Source: Hyphomonadaceae bacterium (GTDB lineage: Bacteria > Pseudomonadota > Alphaproteobacteria > Caulobacterales > Aquidulcibacteraceae). From it: a DNA stretch of 64,000 nucleotides. The position numbers and the translations under genes were made by a program. The stretch is from the NCBI GenBank assembly GCA_033764855.1, contig JANRIP010000005.1:102240-166239 (forward strand), written 5' to 3'. Of the stretch, positions 12,299 to 58,349 are shown piece by piece. Below the pieces are notes generated by a model. The model saw nothing but the letters and a program-made list of their open reading frames with translations. It did not search any database and had not been told where the DNA came from. Positions within the stretch are counted from its first letter, which is position 1. The number at the start of each line of letters is the position of its first letter.

Positions 12299-12304
12299 AC
12301 CTCA

Positions 12305-12367
12305 CACCCATTCCCCAGGGGCGGCGAAGCCGCCGGACTTTTGCTTCGCAAAATCCGGGAATGGGTG
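12305..12367. repeat. family-B palindromic element, gene-less copy (B2)
   Basis: Outer inverted repeat cacccattcccc / ccgggaatgggtg enclosing two small hairpins (ggcggc-gaa-gccgcc and ttttgc-ttc-gcaaaa). Termini match the element around the GIY-YIG gene at 57818..58317. Confidence 0.7.
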
Positions 12368-12437
12368 CATGGCCATGCGAGCGCCATACGGCTCTGGCAT
12401 GGCGAGAGCGCGGGCCGCAAGGTCCGCGCCTCTTGGC

Positions 12438-12626: not shown

Positions 12627-12999
12627 TTTTGTCTCTCCAGGCGCTGCAACATTAGCGACGCAATGTTGAACAGAACCTTTAGGTTACCGGGTCACTAACC
12701 CATCAACGTAAGAGATGCGCATTCGGATCTGCCTCTGCAGGCCCATTTCGTTTCTCAACGCGAATGTGATGCAAACCGCCGCCTTCGCCGCGAGATTTCA
12801 GCGAATTGTGGCGAACCCCCATCGCGAGATCACAGGCTAAAGGATGAGTCGCTTCGCGCCGCCTTACAATTGGACAATCGGCGTCGTCCCCATCACAGCG
12901 CGCTAGATGCGCAACACATGGGCAGGCTCAGCCCTTCTTTTTGGCGCGCTTAGGCGCGCGGGCGACGGTGACGGGCATATCGGCCACTTATCACACCTT

Positions 13000-13104
13000 C
13001 CGTCATTCCGGACGCGCGGAGCGCGATCCGGAATCCAGGGGGTGACACGCTCAGGATGTCGCCCCTGGGTTCCGGGTTCACGCTGCGCGTGCCCCGGAAT
13101 GACG
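13000..13104. repeat. family-A nested-palindrome element (A1, solo)
   Basis: Outer IR ccgtcattccgg / ccggaatgacgg, inner IR ccggaatccagggg / cccctgggttccgg, and arm hairpins cgcgc-gga-gcgcg and cacgc-tgc-gcgtg. Confidence 0.85.
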
Positions 13105-13117
13105 GCAGAGAGAAAAC

Positions 13118-15035: not shown

Positions 15036-15146
15036 TTAATCTCGCCGTCATCCCGGCCGGAGACGCGCAGCGTCGTAGAGCCGGGACCCAGCGCCAAAAC
15101 TCAGCGCTCCGCACCCCTGGCTCCCGGCTCTCCCTCCGGTCGGCCG
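15036..15146. repeat. family-A nested-palindrome element (A2, diverged solo)
   Basis: Outer IR ccgtcatcccggcc / ggccgggatgacgg, arm hairpin gacgc-gca-gcgtc, degenerate inner IR gccgggaccca / ctggctcccggc. Confidence 0.7.
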
Positions 15147-15279
15147 GGATGACGGAGGTTTGGTGGTGAGGTGATGGAAGCTGCGGCCGCTAGCGTGCCC
15201 TTGGTCACATCGCCCGGCGCGGGGGCTGGGTAGGTTTGCTCATCGAAGCGATGACGCTTCGAGTTGAGGAGCAAACCAA

Positions 15280-19276: not shown

Positions 19277-19290
19277 AGCTCATCCACCCC

Positions 19291-19430
19291 CGTCATTCCG
19301 GACGAACTCCCGCGAAAGCGGGAGGGAGACCCGGAACCCAGGAGGACTGGGCGCAGCGCCAAACTCGCATCTAAAAAATTGAGGTTGTCGCCCCTGGGTT
19401 CCGGATCGCGCTCCGCGCGTCCGGAATGAC
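19291..19430. repeat. family-A nested-palindrome element (A3, solo, long loop)
   Basis: Outer IR gtcattccggacg / cgtccggaatgac, inner IR ccggaacccagg / cctgggttccgg (perfect), arm hairpins ctcccgc-gaaa-gcgggag and cgcgc-tcc-gcgcg. Fills the gap between two convergent genes. Confidence 0.85.
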
Positions 19431-19455
19431 TGAATTTAGTGAAGCGTACCTTCAC

Positions 19456-20412
19456 TTAAATCGGATAGCGCATCGCGACATTGGCGCGTTCGTATTTCGC
19501 GCCGAACTTTTTCATCACTTCATCGCAATGGTAGAAGCCCATCTTCTCGTAAAGATGGATCGCGGCCTTTTGCTTCGTATTCGTGAGCAAATGAAGCTTC
19601 TTTACGCCCATTTCACGGGCCCGCGCGATCAGTGCGGCAAGTAGAAACTCGCCCGCCTTCTGGCCGCGTTTTTTCGATGAGACCGCCATTTTGGTGAATT
19701 CGTAGTCGCCATCCTTGCCGACTGGCTGCAGCGCGCCGACGCCAATGATGTCTCCATCGCCATCGCGGACGAATAGAATATCGCCGCCCCGATCGATAAT
19801 GTGCTTGCGCGGATTTGACAGCACCTCTTCGTCCGTCTGCTCCATCTTGAACGCTGAGCGAATCCATTCGGCGTTGAGATCGTAAAACGCGCGCGCGAGT
19901 TCATCGCTATAGCGAACAATAGAAAGACCGGGCGGTTCGCCGGAGCGTGTATGGAGCGGCGTCGCGGCGAGCTTGTCCTCGTAGGCCGCCAACCGCTCTA
20001 AAATGTCGACCGCACCCGCCTCCTCGCTCAGTTCGCGCGCCGCTTCCCTGATCTGGCGCCACGCCGTCGCCTTGAGATGCGCCACCTTGCGCCGGCCTTC
20101 GTCCGTCAGACGTATGACGCGAATGCGCTGATCGGTTTCATGCGTCTCATTGCTGACGAGACCGCTCTCCACCATCGCCGATACGGTGCGCGTGATCGCC
20201 GGCTGTGACACCCCGATCAGGTCGCCGAGCTCGCCAATCGTCGCCGCGCCGCGCAGATCGAGCGTCGCCAGGATGACGTTGAAAGCGGGGAGCAGCCGGC
20301 CATGGCCGCCGGCCTCGAAAATCCTGGTGCAATCAGCCTGCATGCGCTCGGCCAGGCGCTTCATGCGGCTGCCCAAGAACAGAAATCCCAGCTCAGCCAG
20401 CGCGTCCGCCAT
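19456..20412 (-). CDS. MarR-type HTH regulator fused to GNAT N-acetyltransferase
   Basis: N-terminal half is MarR-like (LGDLIGVSQPAITRTVSAMVESGLV). C-terminal half is GNAT (GVGALQP...RGQKAGEFLLAALIARAREMG...LYEKMGF). Confidence 0.8.
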   Translation of the reverse strand: MADALAELGFLFLGSRMKRLAERMQADCTRIFEAGGHGRLLPAFNVILATLDLRGAATIGELGDLIGVSQPAITRTVSAMVESGLVSNETHETDQRIRVIRLTDEGRRKVAHLKATAWRQIREAARELSEEAGAVDILERLAAYEDKLAATPLHTRSGEPPGLSIVRYSDELARAFYDLNAEWIRSAFKMEQTDEEVLSNPRKHIIDRGGDILFVRDGDGDIIGVGALQPVGKDGDYEFTKMAVSSKKRGQKAGEFLLAALIARAREMGVKKLHLLTNTKQKAAIHLYEKMGFYHCDEVMKKFGAKYERANVAMRYPI

Positions 20413-20540: not shown

Positions 20541-22490
20541 ATGTCCGATGCTGTTGTCATTCCCGTCCCGCCCGAATGGGCTAAGCGCGCCTATGTGGAT
20601 GATGTCGCCTATCGCTCCATGCATGCGGCGGCTTTGGCCGATCCGGAGGCGTTCTGGGGCGTTGAGGGTCAGCGGCTCGATTGGATCAAGCCCTACACCA
20701 AGGTGAAGGACTGCTCCTTCAACGAGGCTGACTTTCACATTCGCTGGTACGAGGATGGCACGCTCAACGCCGCGTACAATTGCATCGACCGGCATCTGGA
20801 AAAACGCGGCGATCAAGTGGCGATCATTTGGGAAGGTGACGACCCGGCCCACTCCGCGAAATTCACTTATCGCCAGCTGCATGCGGAAGTGTGCCGCTTC
20901 GCCAATGTGCTGAAGGCGCAAGGCGTCAAGAAGGGTGACATCGTCACCATCTACCTTCCGATGATTCCGCATGCGGCCTTCGCCATGCTGGCGTGCGCGC
21001 GCATTGGCGCGGCGCATTCGGTGGTGTTTGGCGGCTTCTCGCCGGAGAGCCTCGCCAACCGTATCAATGATTGCGGATCGAAATTCGTGATCACCGCCGA
21101 TGAGGGCGTGCGCGGCGGCAAAATCATTCCGCTGAAAGCCAATGTGGATGAAGCGCTCGCCCACGCGCACGTGCCAACCAATGTCGACAAGGTGATTGTC
21201 GTCACCCACACGGCCGCGGGCGTGCCGATGGTGGACGGGCGGGACCTTGTTTACGAGGATGAAGCGGAAAAGGTCAGCGCCGAGTGCCCGTGCGAGGAAA
21301 TGAGCGCGGAAGATCCGCTCTTTATCCTCTACACGTCAGGCTCAACAGGAAAGCCGAAAGGCGTGCTGCACACGACGGGCGGTTATCTCGTCTACGCCTC
21401 GATCACGCATCAATATGTGTTCGATTATCATGATGGCGACATCTATTGGTGCACCGCCGATGTGGGCTGGGTGACGGGTCATTCCTACATCGTCTATGGC
21501 CCGCTCGCGAACGGCGCGACGACATTGATCTTTGAAGGCGTGCCGAATTATCCAACCACATCGCGCTTCTGGGAGGTGGTGGACAAGCACCAGGTCAACA
21601 TCTTCTACACCGCGCCCACCGCGATCCGCGCTTTAATGCGCGAAGGCGAAGCGCCGGTGAAGAAAACTTCGCGCGCGAGTTTGCGTCTGCTCGGCAGCGT
21701 AGGCGAGCCGATCAATCCGGAAGCCTGGCTTTGGTATTATCGCACGGCGGGCGATAGCCGCTGCCCAGTGGTCGATACGTGGTGGCAAACCGAAACTGGC
21801 GGCGCGCTGATCACCAATCTGCCCGGCGCCACGGCGATGAAGCCTGGCAGCGCCACGCGGCCTTTCTTTGGCGTCAAACCCGCGCTCGTCGACGAGCAAG
21901 GCAATTTTCTTGAAGGCGCGGCAAGCGGCAATCTGGTGCTGCTGGATTCATGGCCGGGCCAGATGCGCACCGTTTATGGCGATCATAAGCGCTTCTTCGA
22001 CACCTACTTCACCACCTATAGAGGCATGTACTTCACCGGCGATGGCTGCCGCCGCGATGAAGACGGCTATTATTGGATCACCGGCCGCGTCGATGACGTC
22101 TTGAATGTCAGCGGCCATCGCATCGGCACGGCGGAGATCGAAAGCGCGCTGGTGGCGGATACGAAAGTGGCTGAGGCCGCCGTCGTCGGCTATCCGCACG
22201 ACATTAAGGGCCAGGGCATTTATGCGTACGTCACCCTGAAGCAAGGCGTTGAGCCGAGCGATGAGCTGAAGCGCGAATTGGTGCAGGTGGTGCGCCACGA
22301 AATCGGCCCCACTGCGACGCCCGACATCATCCAATGGGCGCCCGGCCTGCCCAAGACTCGCAGCGGCAAAATCATGCGCCGCATCCTGCGCAAGATCGCT
22401 GAGAACGAACTGGGCAATTTAGGCGATACGAGCACGCTGGCGGACCCAAGCGTGGTGGAGGATTTGGTGCGGAATCGGGCAGGGGCTTAA
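20541..22490 (+). CDS. acs: acetyl-CoA synthetase
   Basis: 649 aa. AMP-binding motif [12 protein letters not shown]-terminal [11 protein letters not shown] motif containing the conserved acetylatable lysine. Confidence 0.95.
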
Positions 22491-22499
22491 ACTGCCATC

Positions 22500-22620
22500 C
22501 CATTTCCGTCATTCCGGGGCATGCGCAGCATGAACCCGGAATCCAGGGGATGACAGAGCATATCGGCTGCCCCTGGATTCCGGGTTCGACCTAGCGGTCG
22601 CCCCGGAATGACGGAAATGG
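22500..22620. repeat. family-A nested-palindrome element (A4)
   Basis: 20-bp perfect outer IR ccatttccgtcattccgggg / ccccggaatgacggaaatgg, 18-bp perfect inner IR gaacccggaatccagggg / cccctggattccgggttc, arm hairpins catgc-gca-gcatg and cgacc-tagc-ggtcg. Confidence 0.9.
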
Positions 22621-22632
22621 TAGCGTCGAGCT

Positions 22633-22953
22633 ATGTCCCGCTACGAAGCCATTGCGGTTTACATCATGGCGAATGAGCGCAATGGCACGCTCTATATTGG
22701 CGTGACCAGCAATTTGCCACGACGCGCTCAGCAACATCGCGAAGGGCTCGTTGAAGGCTTCACGCAGAAGTACGGCTGCAAGCTACTTGTTTGGTTTGAA
22801 CAACGCCAAGATATGCACACCGCGCTCGCACGCGAGAAAGAACTCAAGAAGTGGCGCCGCGACTGGAAGCTCGCCCTGATCGAGAAATCAAACCCACAAT
22901 GGCGGGATCTCGCGGAGGACTTCCTAAATCCCCCGCCGCCAACTTTTCTCTGA
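22633..22953 (+). CDS. GIY-YIG nuclease family protein
   Basis: 106 aa with YIMANERNGTLYIGVTSNL...H..G...F..KYG...LVWFE...E..LKKWRRDWK. Bracketed within 12 and 2 bp by elements A4 and A5. Confidence 0.8.
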   Translation: MSRYEAIAVYIMANERNGTLYIGVTSNLPRRAQQHREGLVEGFTQKYGCKLLVWFEQRQDMHTALAREKELKKWRRDWKLALIEKSNPQWRDLAEDFLNPPPPTFL

Positions 22954-22955
22954 TC

Positions 22956-23063
22956 CGTCGTTCCGGGGCGACCGGAGGTCGAACCCGGAATCCAGGGGCC
23001 AGCAAGTACCGCGCTCTCGTCCCTTGGATTCCGGGTTCATGCTCCGCATGCCCCGGAGTGACG
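22956..23063. repeat. family-A nested-palindrome element (A5, inverted relative to A4)
   Basis: Outer IR cgtcgttccgggg / ccccggagtgacg, inner IR gaacccggaatccagggg / cccttggattccgggttc. The arm hairpins cgacc-gga-ggtcg and catgc-tcc-gcatg occur in the opposite order to A4. Confidence 0.85.
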
Positions 23064-23128
23064 AACTGGCCACGCCAACGTAGGTCACACCCCTAGCGCC
23101 GGCCGCCCTACCATTGTATATCCACAGC

Positions 23129-23231: not shown

Positions 23232-23258
23232 AAGCCGCCAGGATCTGGCGGCTTTTTT
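23232..23258 (+). terminator. rho-independent terminator / candidate attenuator upstream of DAHP synthase
   Basis: aagccgcca / tggcggctt stem with a tttttt tail, ending 39 nt before the GTG start. The 5' stem half ccgccagg can alternatively pair with cctggcgg at 23179-23186, inside the mini-ORF. Confidence 0.65.
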
Positions 23259-28304: not shown

Positions 28305-28402
28305 GATCGGCACCCGGGGAGCCGCGCCGAAGCGGCTGAGATTGGGCTGACGCCCTGACCCGTTGAACCTGATCCGGGTCATGCCGGCGAAGGGAGAGAC
28401 CC
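28305..28402 (+). promoter_or_regulatory. TPP (THI-box) riboswitch
   Basis: Conserved elements ggggagc...gctgaga...ccctgacccgttgaacctgatccgggtcatgccggcgaaggga directly upstream of thiC. Boundaries approximate. Confidence 0.85.
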
Positions 28403-28482
28403 ATGACGCCAGCCAACACCAATTGCGCGCGCCGCGGCCAGACCGCCGCTTCCGCGCGCGCATCTCGTCCCATCCAGGATAA

Positions 28483-30387
<1,905 letters not shown>

Positions 30388-31356: not shown

Positions 31357-31516
31357 CCCTTCTCCCCTTGAGGGGAGAAGGTGGCCCGGAGGGCCGGATG
31401 AGGGGATCACGGTGGTCGCGGAATGGGGCGACGTCACCAGCGCTAAAGTTGGAAACAAAGAACTGCCCCTCATCCGTCGGCTTCGCCGACACCTTCTCCC
31501 CTCAAGGGGAGAAGGG
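31357..31516. repeat. family-C composite palindromic element (C1)
   Basis: Terminal hairpins cccttctcccc-ttga-ggggagaagg and ccttctcccc-tcaa-ggggagaaggg, with internal IR atgagggg / cccctcat. Begins 3 bp after the stop of the preceding gene. Confidence 0.85.
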
Positions 31517-31572
31517 TTGGACCGGCGCTCACCCGGCGCTGCGCGCCACCCTCTCCCCTCAAAGGGAGAGGG
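31517..31572. repeat. family-C half element
   Basis: ctcacccggcgctgcgcgccaccctctcccc-tcaaa-gggagaggg resembles the right half of C elements. Confidence 0.6.
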
Positions 31573-31588
31573 ACAATAAGCTGGAAGC

Positions 31589-31939
31589 ATGAAGCGCAAT
31601 CCGGACAGCGTCCGTCGCGCGCGTGAGAGCCGCGCGGAGATGACCAATGCGGAGACCAAGCTTTGGTCGCTGCTTCGGGATCGTCGGCTGATCAGCCGCA
31701 AATTCCGCCGCCAGCACACGATTGGAATTTACGTTGTCGACTTCGCCTGCCCGGCGCTCCATCTCGTGATTGAGGTGGATGGGCCGTCGCACGACGCGGA
31801 AGACCAGAAGGTGTTTGACGCGCAGCGTACCGAATACCTCCAACGCGAAGGCTGGCGCGTGATCCGGTTCAAGAATGACGAAGTGTATCAGTCGTTCGGA
31901 TACGTGCAGGAGCGCATCATAGCCGAATGCGGCGAGTGA
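31589..31939 (+). CDS. DUF559 (Vsr-like endonuclease fold) protein
   Basis: 116 aa with MTNAETKLWSLLR...FRRQH.IG.YVVDFACP...LVIEVDG.SH...D..R...L...GWRVIRF.N.EV, typical of DUF559. Confidence 0.85.
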   Translation: MKRNPDSVRRARESRAEMTNAETKLWSLLRDRRLISRKFRRQHTIGIYVVDFACPALHLVIEVDGPSHDAEDQKVFDAQRTEYLQREGWRVIRFKNDEVYQSFGYVQERIIAECGE

Positions 31940-31946
31940 TAAGCAT

Positions 31947-32100
31947 CCCCTCTCCCCTTGAGGGGAGAGGGTGGCGCGAAGCGCCGGGTGAGGGGCTGAC
32001 GGTGTCGGCAGAATAAAGCTCGATCTCGTTCGCTTGGCGCCAGATACGCGCCCCTCATCCGCCCGCTTCGCGGGCACCTTCTCCCCTCAAGGGGAGAAGG
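31947..32100. repeat. family-C composite palindromic element (C2)
   Basis: cccctctcccc-ttga-ggggagaggg ... gtgagggg / cccctcat ... ccttctcccc-tcaa-ggggagaagg. Starts 8 bp after the DUF559 stop. Confidence 0.85.
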
Positions 32101-35497: not shown

Positions 35498-35524
35498 TTA
35501 TCCTCCAGCGGTCCCATCCCGGAC

Positions 35525-35700
35525 CCAAGGATCGTTTGCCGGCAGGTCTTCTGGCTTCGCGGGTCAGCGCTTTGATCCGCCTTCCCGGATTGCTCCAGTG
35601 GCTGGTTGGATCAGAGCTCGCCGCTTACAGCTGCGGGCGCAGCCGCGGAATTGCACCGCGTTCCCTCGTGCTCCTTACGGAGACCGACATGGGCTCTCTT
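35525..35700 (-). promoter_or_regulatory. cobalamin riboswitch
   Basis: The minus strand reads ...agggaacgcggtgcaattccgcggctg...gccactgg (B12 box, plus-strand ccagtggc at 35595-35602)...gggaaggc...agaagacctgccggc. Boundaries approximate. Confidence 0.85.
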
Positions 35701-35735
35701 AAAGGCGCGGCGGCGGCGGCGCAATCGAACGCGCC

Positions 35736-54086: not shown

Positions 54087-54162
<76 letters not shown>

Positions 54163-57811: not shown

Positions 57812-57817
57812 ACCTCC

Positions 57818-58317
57818 CACCCATTCCCGGGGCGCCGCGCAGCGGCGAGCCCGGGACCCATAAACTGGCTTGTCTAAAGATTGCCATTTGCTGCGCCCCG
57901 CGCACAATTCCGCAATGCGCACTGACGAAAGCCGCCTGACCGCGACCTACATGCTCGCCAACCGCAAACACGGCACGCTTTATCTCGGTTCAGCGCTCGA
58001 CCTGGTTCAGCGCATGAGCGAACACAAATCCGGTCTCGGCTCCCAGTTCGTCGCGAAATATGGGCTGGATCGGCTTGTTTGGTTTGAGCCATTTATGCTC
58101 GTCTCAGAGGCGCGCGACCGCGAATACCAACTGAAGAAATGGCGGCGAGACTGGAAGATCAATCTCATCGAGCATGAAAATCCAGACTGGGATGACCTCT
58201 ATCCCACGCTTACAGGCGGAACGCCGATGCGCTCTCGCTGGCGTCCAGGCTAGACTTCAAAACAAACGTGTTTATGGGTCCCGGACTTGGCGCTTTGCGC
58301 CAATCCGGGAATGGGTG
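57818..58317. mobile_element. family-B nested-palindrome element carrying a GIY-YIG gene (B1, putative mobile unit)
   Basis: Outer IR cacccattcccgg (57818-57830) / ccgggaatgggtg (58305-58317). Inner IR ccgggacccataaac (57851-57865) / gtttatgggtcccgg (58270-58284). Arm hairpins cgccgc-gca-gcggcg and ttggcgc-ttt-gcgccaa. The gene occupies the loop. Confidence 0.7.
57915..58253 (+). CDS. GIY-YIG nuclease family protein
   Basis: Start at MRTDESRLTATYMLANRKHGTLYLG. Shares GTLY[IL]G, KYG, LVWFE, LKKWRRDWK, LIE, NP.W.DL with the 22633..22953 protein. Confidence 0.8.
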   Translation: MRTDESRLTATYMLANRKHGTLYLGSALDLVQRMSEHKSGLGSQFVAKYGLDRLVWFEPFMLVSEARDREYQLKKWRRDWKINLIEHENPDWDDLYPTLTGGTPMRSRWRPG

Positions 58318-58349
58318 TTCAAACACCGCTCACCAATTCGGAGCCGCTT

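Follow-up and report, generated by a model that had tools for sequence, protein, structure and literature searches.

A GIY-YIG nuclease gene between inverted hairpin dimers in a Hyphomonadaceae genome: a probable long-loop copy of the Ssn/SRM system

Directly downstream of acs on contig JANRIP010000005.1 of a Hyphomonadaceae bacterium (GCA_033764855.1), a short gene for a GIY-YIG nuclease lies between two palindromic elements, A4 and A5. The block that they form (22500-23065; coordinates are those of the window, the whole stretch of 64,000 nucleotides that was analysed) is the subject of this report. We consider it probable, at roughly 80%, that the block is a copy of the Ssn/SRM system carried on CGTC-type repetitive extragenic palindrome (REP) dimers, in a variant of the motif with a long loop. 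The Ssn family was described in March 2025 by Chenal et al. in Nature Communications (PMC11893778), and the CGTC-tagged REP superfamily by Di Nocera, De Gregorio and Rocco in BMC Genomics in 2013 (PMC3733652). Since the Ssn/SRM partnership was published in 2025, the finding is a rediscovery that adds a new example, not a new kind of system. What differs locally is the long structured loop and the presence of two cognate nuclease-repeat pairs in one genome. The parts of the block are as follows.

22500-22620, no strand assigned: element A4, in which two CGTC-tagged REP (SRM-like) hairpins form a dimer with the heads outward, the left REP lying at about 22505-22549 (+), followed by a spacer at 22550-22569 and the right REP at about 22570-22615 (-).
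22633-22953, + strand: ssn-type gene (A-type), encoding a single-domain GIY-YIG nuclease of 106 amino acids.
22954-23065, no strand assigned: element A5, another REP dimer, in the opposite orientation to A4, with the left REP at about 22954-22998 (+), a spacer at 22999-23020 and the right REP at about 23021-23064 (-).

The arrangement of A4, gene and A5 is real and is not a product of chance. An earlier note on this DNA had reported perfect outer and inner inverted repeats in A4, and measurement bore this out: the outer repeat extends over 21 bp (22500-22520 and 22600-22620; the note had given 20) and the inner over 18 bp (22532-22549 and 22570-22587). It had also placed A5 on the far side of the 106-amino-acid gene with gaps of 12 and 2 bp, which agrees with the 12 bp found to A4 upstream and the 0-2 bp found to A5 downstream. 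The opposite order of the side hairpins in the two elements could likewise be verified, A4 carrying catgc-GCA-gcatg and then cgacc-TAGC-ggtcg, and A5 cgacc-GGA-ggtcg followed by catgc-TCC-gcatg. A4 matches the reverse complement of A5 at 86% over 111 bp, far longer than the best direct match (82% over 45 bp), and the two elements are therefore inverted relative to each other, as had been claimed. The heads of A5, CGTCGTTCC and CGTCACTCC, show slight degeneration. Folded as single-stranded DNA (ssDNA), A4 reaches -54.5 kcal/mol (z = -13.2) and A5 -38.6 kcal/mol (z = -6.6), values that none of 200 shuffles equalled in either case. When up to 3 mismatches are allowed, the window holds eight occurrences of the inner-arm motif AACCCGGAATCCAGGGG, where shuffles would lead one to expect 0.14, and a scan of the whole window at the Rfam gathering thresholds gave no match at the palindromic elements.

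The product of the gene (the A protein) belongs to the GIY-YIG superfamily. It matches Pfam GIY-YIG PF01541 above the cut-off with E = 1.2e-15, and its sole other Pfam match is a sub-threshold one to T5orf172. In alignment A1 of its homologs, residues Y10, Y21, H35, E68 and N87 do not vary and R31 hardly does, and the intervals between Y10, Y21 and E68 (11 and 47) are those between Y6, Y17 and E64 in the Neisseria meningitidis enzyme SsnA. Every top match of its AlphaFold2 model (predicted local distance difference test, 78.7) in a Foldseek search of the Protein Data Bank (PDB) was a GIY-YIG domain. The nearest relative by sequence in the PDB, and the sole significant one, is the UPF0213 protein 1ZG2 (E = 2e-5); searches of that database by sequence and by fold brought up distant GIY-YIG domains only and no solved Ssn structure. 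NCBIfam holds no model specific for the A protein, the model for group I intron endonucleases scoring 18 bits against a cut-off of 56, and Pfam gave no match to an HUH / Y1 or any other transposase domain in this protein or in its paralog, introduced below. By homology with SsnA, the A protein is predicted to be a hairpin-guided endonuclease of ssDNA.

Much is known of SsnA. It is a single-domain GIY-YIG protein of 94 amino acids (CDD cd10448) that binds its motif, NTS (CGTCATTCCCGCGMAVGCGGGAATCYRG), solely as ssDNA and cuts a few nucleotides upstream of it, leaving the complementary strand, duplex DNA and RNA uncut (PMC11893778). The substitutions Y6A, Y17A and E64A abolished cutting, the palindrome was found to be recognised by its sequence as well as by its shape, and the GTC trinucleotide of the head had the strongest effect on cleavage by the Neisseria enzyme (PMC11893778). 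In the same study cleavage close to the cognate motif was also seen with Ssn homologs of three further species, and among Ssn homologs 71% had a nearby SRM and 42% had one on both sides (PMC11893778). The superfamily of CGTC-tagged REPs, in turn, is found mainly in Alphaproteobacteria and includes dRS3 of Neisseria and RPE-4/6 of Rickettsia; its members form inverted dimers and were said in 2013 to "lack a dedicated transposase" (PMC3733652). Literature searches that combined GIY-YIG with REP, RAYT (REP-associated tyrosine transposase) or MITE (miniature inverted-repeat transposable element), or that used COG2827, UPF0213 and YhbQ, returned no direct prior description of such an arrangement, and the Ssn paper was found by combining CGTC with GIY-YIG.

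The repeats of the block follow the plan of both published families, apart from the loop. An A unit reads CGTC-ATTCCGGGG-[5-bp mini-hairpin]-AACCCGGAAT-CCAGGGG, and an A element consists of two such units, inverted, the heads facing outward and about 20 nt separating the two. When a half is folded alone, the TCCGTC head is unpaired and is followed by a stem (ATTCCGGG/CCCGGAAT), a 5-bp apical stem and an unpaired CCAGGGG tail, and the canonical 28-nt motif CGTCATTCCCGCGAACGCGGGAATCCAG folds according to an equal plan. The halves therefore show the CGTC head, the stem of 8-9 bp starting with AT and the CCA-type tail by which CGTC-tagged REPs are recognised, and the A-type elements of the window form inverted dimers with spacers of the usual size (20-100 bp). 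The loop is another matter, since the A loop region extends over 13-14 nt (up to about 24 nt in a solo dimer at 19288-19432) and holds a mini-hairpin of 5-6 bp with a covarying apical stem, where a loop of 4-5 nt is the criterion for CGTC-tagged REPs. The published SRM pattern, HGTCWYN(0-2)YYVSBRHN(0-5)WNVSBRGN(0-2)RNCYNB, similarly allows at most 5 variable loop positions beyond the fixed positions of stem and loop. With the loop widened to 6-25 nt it matches both halves of A4 and one half of another solo dimer (13065-13104). As the A repeats fail on loop length alone, their head and tail being identical to those of NTS, the mismatch is no sign of an unrelated repeat; the published pattern is too narrow for this clade.

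Covariation within the long loop was examined in 45 distinct 45-nt long-loop units taken from the fetched loci. Each of the four central apical pairs had undergone 13-24 double compensatory changes, and 98.3% of the cells were paired; none of 500 shuffles reached so high a value, and no slid register came near it. A conserved basal stem beside a covarying apical stem indicates that the hairpin is divided into a part read by sequence and a part read by shape, with the proviso that the invariance of the basal stem is partly built in, because most of that stem was already fixed by the pattern with which the units were gathered. Such a division agrees with the recognition of the palindrome by both sequence and shape that was published for SsnA (PMC11893778). 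Covariation of this kind suggests that the apical extension may be read, if at all, as shape only.

The window contains a second gene of the same type, which lies within a related repeat, B1:

57816-57866, + strand: left B-type REP of B1, with a CACCC head (inverted-repeat arm 57818-57873).
57915-58253, + strand: paralogous ssn-type gene (B-type), 112 amino acids from the ATG at 57915, between the arms of B1.
58269-58319, - strand: right B-type REP of B1, inverted relative to the left REP (inverted-repeat arm 58262-58317).

The earlier note had recognised this protein as a paralog of the A protein, and rightly so: the two are 46% identical over 95 amino acids (tblastn E = 2e-25), and the B protein matches Pfam PF01541 above the cut-off as well (E = 1.3e-12). 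B1 is a dimer split around the gene, and its arms, with a CACCC head, a stem TCCCGGG/CCCGGGA, a 6-bp apical stem and the tail CCCATAAAC, are built to the same plan as the A units, the head falling outside the CGTC/TGTC/CCTC variants of the CGTC-tagged REPs. A and B belong to a single repeat superfamily, as two variants of its specificity, and are not unrelated families. Loci from soil and other metagenomes (L099-L168) were also seen to carry, very commonly beside Ssn homologs, units of the form GTCATTCCGGGG-[variable hairpin]-AGCCCGGAAYCCAT; as these combine A-like heads with B-like tails, A and B are best regarded as the ends of a continuum. It had been proposed that one nuclease subfamily associates with two different repeat families in two different geometries. 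Of this, the pairing of each paralog with its own repeat type stands; the two families are variants of one superfamily, however, and the geometries vary among relatives.

The association extends well beyond this genome. The nearest relatives of the A protein are found in Terricaulis. Homologs 69-79% identical to it (L001-L005) lie at loci other than acs, four of them (L001-L004) between a terminase-like gene and gyrB and the fifth (L005) after a ketoacyl synthase gene, and all five close relatives with intact flanks at non-acs loci have a complete A-type dimer on each side. Among homologs 54-69% identical (57-66% in the ten listed) the flanking repeats fit or nearly fit the NTS consensus. Species-representative genomes of Alpha-, Beta- and Gammaproteobacteria, Dehalococcoidia, Planctomycetota, Syntrophales and other groups were then scanned, yielding 80 loci, and for each gene the 250 bp upstream were compared with the 250 bp downstream at a threshold of 35 bits, with controls taken 1.2 kb away. 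A shared flank repeat of at least 35 bits was found at 49 of 82 loci (36 inverted, 30 direct) and at none of 69 control pairs. In distant taxa the shared unit is about 28 bp long, (C)GTCATTCCCGCG-NNN-CGCGGGAATCCAG, and is mostly inverted across the gene, with the CGTC heads distal and 0-40 bp between the arms and the start and stop codons. The strict SRM pattern occurs within 300 bp of the gene at 42 of 85 homologous loci, and on both sides at 19; with long loops allowed the number rises to 60, and the clade nearest the A protein has long-loop units almost exclusively.

A metagenome scan with the B1 protein added 80 further loci, giving a combined non-redundant set of 162. Scoring took in heads lying up to 300 bp from the gene, A-like and B-like denoting proteins at least 65% identical to the A and the B1 protein, respectively, with the following result.

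A-like proteins (n = 17): GTCAT only, 16; CCCAT only, 0; both, 1; neither, 0.
B-like proteins (n = 9): GTCAT only, 0; CCCAT only, 6; both, 1; neither, 2.
Other proteins (n = 136): GTCAT only, 114; CCCAT only, 1; both, 6; neither, 15.

GTCAT-type heads are thus present beside the gene at about 85% of the 162 loci, and their density is 3.84 per kb in the flanks against 0.32 per kb elsewhere in the loci, an enrichment of about 12-fold; the published SRM pattern has a density of 1.70 per kb at up to 300 bp from the genes and of 0.084 per kb in the remainder of the loci. Protein and repeat type go together, as GTCAT heads accompany all 17 A-like proteins, and CCCAT heads 7 of the 9 B-like ones, none of which has GTCAT alone; the two B-like loci with neither head carry degenerate variants of the B head. 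The census and the comparison of nuclease with repeat type, both of which the earlier note had put forward as checks, accordingly show that this GIY-YIG subfamily lies beside palindromic repeats systematically and not by chance. Among relatives a dimer may stand on one side alone, be it upstream or downstream, on both sides, or split around the gene; for B dimers the upstream, the downstream and the split positions were seen.

Could these palindromes nevertheless be ordinary REP- or terminator-like hairpins that work at the RNA level and have no tie to the nuclease? REPs frequently occupy positions downstream of genes and are able to act at the level of mRNA (PMC3733652), pairing in RNA would account for the hairpin covariation as readily as pairing in ssDNA, and an element placed after acs could stabilise or attenuate its transcript, yet such a chance adjacency is hardly credible in view of the 85% of loci across phyla, the 12- to 20-fold local enrichment, the 0 of 69 control pairs, the covariation of protein clade with repeat head, and the direct binding and cleavage demonstrated for four members of the Ssn family (PMC11893778).

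Several points weigh against assigning the block to the Ssn/SRM system. The strict SRM pattern has no match in the 64-kb window (0.3 expected), so that by the letter of the published definition the repeats fall outside it. The A protein is a probable member of the Ssn family, on evidence that is strong but indirect (homologs flanked by repeats that fit or nearly fit NTS, the residue spacing, a single domain and the predicted GIY-YIG fold), and the enzymatic action ascribed to both proteins of the window is carried over from their homologs and should be taken as presumptive. The CACCC head of the B repeats does not contain the GTC trinucleotide that is key to cleavage in Neisseria, and the role of Ssn enzymes outside Neisseria was not known to the family's authors themselves (PMC11893778).

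If the block does work as an Ssn/SRM system, its mechanism can be sketched by homology with SsnA. The A protein would bind the folded repeat only on ssDNA, on the strand reading 5'-CGTC, and would cut a few nucleotides 5' of the head, sparing duplex DNA and the complementary strand. Scattered repeats, among them the three solo A-type dimers of the window, would mark many places at which ssDNA could be cut, the targets being possibly incoming transforming or conjugative strands or else intermediates of replication and recombination; in Neisseria, SsnA lowers transformation by DNA that bears the motif (PMC11893778). The B protein (57915-58253) would act as a further enzyme, whose head specificity has shifted to CACCC and whose partners are the B repeats. 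A gene set between its own target repeats would correspond to the usual layout of the Ssn family, which resembles that of an insertion sequence.

Besides the gene-associated elements, the window holds four solo repeats:

12303-12369, no strand assigned: solo short B-type palindrome, with the head CACCCATTCCC at each end.
About 12998-13106, no strand assigned: solo A-type REP dimer without an adjoining nuclease gene.
15045-15155, no strand assigned: solo REP dimer of a third subtype, with the head CGTC and the stem ATCCCGGC/GCCGGGAT, without an adjoining nuclease gene.
19288-19432, no strand assigned: solo A-type REP dimer without an adjoining nuclease gene, located at a break in synteny.

In all five A-type elements of the window the two halves of the dimer point their heads outward and are separated by about 20-55 nt, and A dimers can fold into palindromes of 110-120 nt. 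At the last of the solo dimers, synteny of the region 19288-20412 with three relatives (L006-L008), which covers an alanine dehydrogenase-like gene, an AsnC-family regulator and acs, was observed to break exactly at the repeat; the dimer stands between the AsnC-family gene and an extra gene of 318 amino acids (- strand), which follows it and is absent at this position in L006-L008. Such breaks at repeat dimers fit the older idea of repeats as sites of recombination.

The layout invites a second explanation, namely an active mobile element of the REPtron or insertion-sequence kind, in which the nuclease mobilises both the dimers and the whole repeat-gene-repeat unit and A4 and A5 form its ends. 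The arrangement is indeed that of insertion sequences and of RAYT/REP pairs, with which the Ssn authors concur, solo dimers are dispersed, and enzyme and repeat co-vary. The ssn gene also occupies different loci in different genomes (its neighbours include acs, a terminase-like gene, gyrB and a DAHP synthase-like gene). In Terricaulis GCA_047601265.1, two copies (6022-6351 in L008 and 4001-4327 in L005) lie about 38 kb apart, with highly similar coding regions and differing flanks. The copy of L008, which adjoins acs, lacks the first 11 codons and the upstream dimer, and the pair suggests a recent duplication or gene conversion followed by decay.

Comparison of acs 3' ends, where regions lacking the 560-bp block were to be sought, gave a mixed answer. 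Such regions exist, for the relative with the closest acs (L006, 93% identical at the amino acid level) and another (L007, 87%) have neither the repeats nor the gene, and a third (L008, 86%) has a 5'-truncated ssn gene and a downstream dimer, so that the adjacency of acs and ssn is common to the window and to L008. The flanking genes differ in each case, however, and the comparison represents neither a clean insertion nor a clean deletion; the empty site is confounded by other rearrangements at the junction.

The evidence on mobility as a whole is mixed, and other observations speak against frequent movement. By inspection, no target-site duplications were seen at A4, at A5, at the whole block or at the solo dimers. 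In three of the close relatives (L001, L002 and L004) the gene is found at a common site, and B1 is syntenic with its counterpart in L097. The flanking A-type dimers stand in direct orientation in L001, L004, L011 and L012, whereas L009, L013 and the window have them inverted, and since the orientation differs in this way between genomes the dimers do not behave as the terminal inverted repeats of a composite element, to which the earlier note had likened them. GIY-YIG enzymes are hydrolytic nucleases, and we know of no strand-transfer activity among them. Moreover, as SsnA spares the complementary strand, a heads-outward pair would offer one cuttable site per strand, from which excision of a single-stranded circle in the manner of IS200/IS605 would not be predicted. 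In terms of known classes, the gene is flanked by inverted dispersed repeats as in a REPtron and has no HUH tyrosine transposase like that of IS200/IS605; measured against insertion sequences and MITEs, inverted ends are present, direct duplications were not seen and a transposase domain is absent. An active element of this kind is therefore unlikely; nothing here demonstrates transposition, and close relatives keep their genes at orthologous sites. We read the layout as the trace of a selfish or domesticated partnership of nuclease and repeat that is now mostly inherited vertically, and not as an active composite transposon.

Homing endonucleases are numerous among the GIY-YIG enzymes, and a free-standing enzyme of this sort might break 'empty' dimers and have its gene copied into them from an occupied one during repair, for which the repeats would supply the homology. 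B1 and L097 do have the gene inside the spacer of a dimer split in two, whereas the spacers of solo dimers are short, and the coding similarity of the two Terricaulis paralogs stops at the REP head. Many relatives, on the other hand, have an intact, unsplit dimer beside the gene, only one or two copies per genome were present among the genomes examined, and the A protein does not have the DNA-binding domain typical of homing GIY-YIG enzymes (the 18 bits against 56 given above). Homing is thereby rendered very unlikely, all the more as the characterised Ssn members do not cut duplex DNA (PMC11893778).

Returning to the Ssn/SRM assignment, the block taken alone is a further example of a published system and changes little. 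Long-loop variants with nested hairpins are common in Hyphomonadaceae and in relatives from soil metagenomes, however, and because the published motif pattern misses them, surveys that use it undercount the Ssn genes associated with repeats. The presence in one genome of two enzyme-repeat pairs with differing heads would amount to a natural switch of specificity, from which new cutting specificities for ssDNA tools might be obtained. A side effect of the repeats was noticed in protein P0115, whose N-terminal extension (MNPEPTGDG...RVRNDS) resembles a read-through translation of an A-type repeat, which suggests that such repeats inflate calls of open reading frames and yield spurious peptides in databases.

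The immediate surroundings of the block include two further features:

20541-22490, + strand: acs, acetyl-CoA synthetase, an open reading frame of 649 amino acids; the upstream neighbour, outside the system and given for context.
23232-23254, + strand: terminator-like hairpin with a run of T, downstream of the block, found by a consensus scan.

Homologs of the acs product, named acetate--CoA ligase, are 93-78% identical to it. A promoter scan of the interval between acs and the ssn gene gave no promoter-like site, and the hairpin at 23232-23254 is a possible end of an acs-ssn transcript, the two genes being presumably co-transcribed.

A different nuclease gene of the window was found in a comparable setting. 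The region 31357-32100 contains a DUF559 gene (31589-31939, + strand; 116 amino acids; Pfam E = 5e-35) of the Vsr-like PD-(D/E)XK type, which stands between inverted arms of a repeat that we call 'C' (31528-31572 and 31948-31992, 96% complementary), with further copies nearby. This compound hairpin repeat is made up of CCYTCTCCCC-loop-GGGGAGARGG, GGCGC-loop-GCGCC and GGTGAGGGG. Four DUF559 homologs (57-70% identical; L169, L171, L172 and L173) at four different loci of other genomes have the 'C' repeat inverted on both sides. The 697 kb examined contained 17 repeat cores, 11 of which adjoin these five genes. Titles and abstract openings of the papers mentioning DUF559 in the searched literature pointed to no DUF559-repeat arrangement, and this side observation may be a more original lead than the Ssn block. 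One might go further and join Ssn-A/CGTC, Ssn-B/CACC and DUF559/'C' into a general class of nuclease-driven repeat systems that resembles RAYT/REPIN, in which the nuclease would spread and maintain its repeats, and which would extend to DUF559 as a third fold. We hold this to be a doubtful generalisation; if it were true, the question from 2013 of which enzyme serves the CGTC REPs would be answered.

Among features unrelated to these repeats, Rfam matches at the gathering threshold were obtained for a cobalamin riboswitch (35524-35703, - strand), a thiamine pyrophosphate (TPP) riboswitch (28305-28412, + strand) and a tRNA (54090-54162, - strand). An inverted repeat of 23 nt with a 28-nt spacer was also noted at 28960-29033 (GCCGGTGACACACACTCTTTTTC / GAAAAAGAGTGTGTGTCACC; 96% complementary), which is unlike the REP families.

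Compared with known systems, the block has only a distant kinship with the other GIY-YIG proteins. UPF0213 / YhbQ (PDB 1ZG2, BH0048, and 1YWL, EF2693), Slx1 and the N-terminal domain of UvrC share the GIY-YIG fold with the A protein, supply its best fold matches in the PDB and are otherwise distant from it (at most 28% identity; TM-score 0.42-0.56), and to our knowledge none of them is linked to hairpin repeats. Recognition of the whole 120-nt palindrome as a cruciform, in the manner of Slx1, was considered as the primary mode and set aside as the less probable one, because the characterised members of the Ssn family act on single ssDNA hairpins and each half of the palindrome folds alone.

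The REPtron, that is, a RAYT gene with GTAG-tagged REPs or REPINs, resembles the block in its design. In both cases the gene of a hairpin-recognising ssDNA enzyme lies between inverted copies of the repeat, solo dimers are many and gene copies few in a genome, and inheritance is largely vertical. They differ in the enzyme, a hydrolytic GIY-YIG nuclease here as opposed to an HUH tyrosine transposase that forms a covalent intermediate, and in the tag, CGTC as opposed to GTAG. The parallel with REP/RAYT under a different enzyme class, which the earlier note had drawn, is therefore apt, and an equal parallel, from the NTS-ssnA-NTS layout to insertion sequences and RAYT/REP, is drawn by the Ssn authors in their Discussion (PMC11893778).

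On the side of the repeats, the CGTC-tagged REPs share with the A units the unpaired head, the AT-starting stem, the type of tail and the inverted dimers, which are often heterodimers; loops of 4-5 nt are the rule among them, and longer ones were noted only for some taxa, for example Bradyrhizobium (PMC3733652).

The Ssn/SRM system is the closest of all. It has in common with the block a single-domain GIY-YIG protein of about 95-110 amino acids with an equally spaced catalytic Tyr-Tyr-Glu, a gene flanked by its own hairpin repeat, repeats dispersed in the genome, cognate pairs of enzyme and repeat, and an equal head (CGTCATTCC), tail (GGAATCCAG) and overall plan of the repeat. We know of no transposition activity in the Ssn family. 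The differences are that the loops of the window reach 13-14 nt (to about 24) and contain a mini-hairpin of 5-6 bp, against the 5 variable positions at most of the published pattern, that the repeats of the window form tight heads-outward dimers and palindromes of 110-120 nt, and that this genome has two paralogs whose repeats bear different heads, CGTC and CACC.

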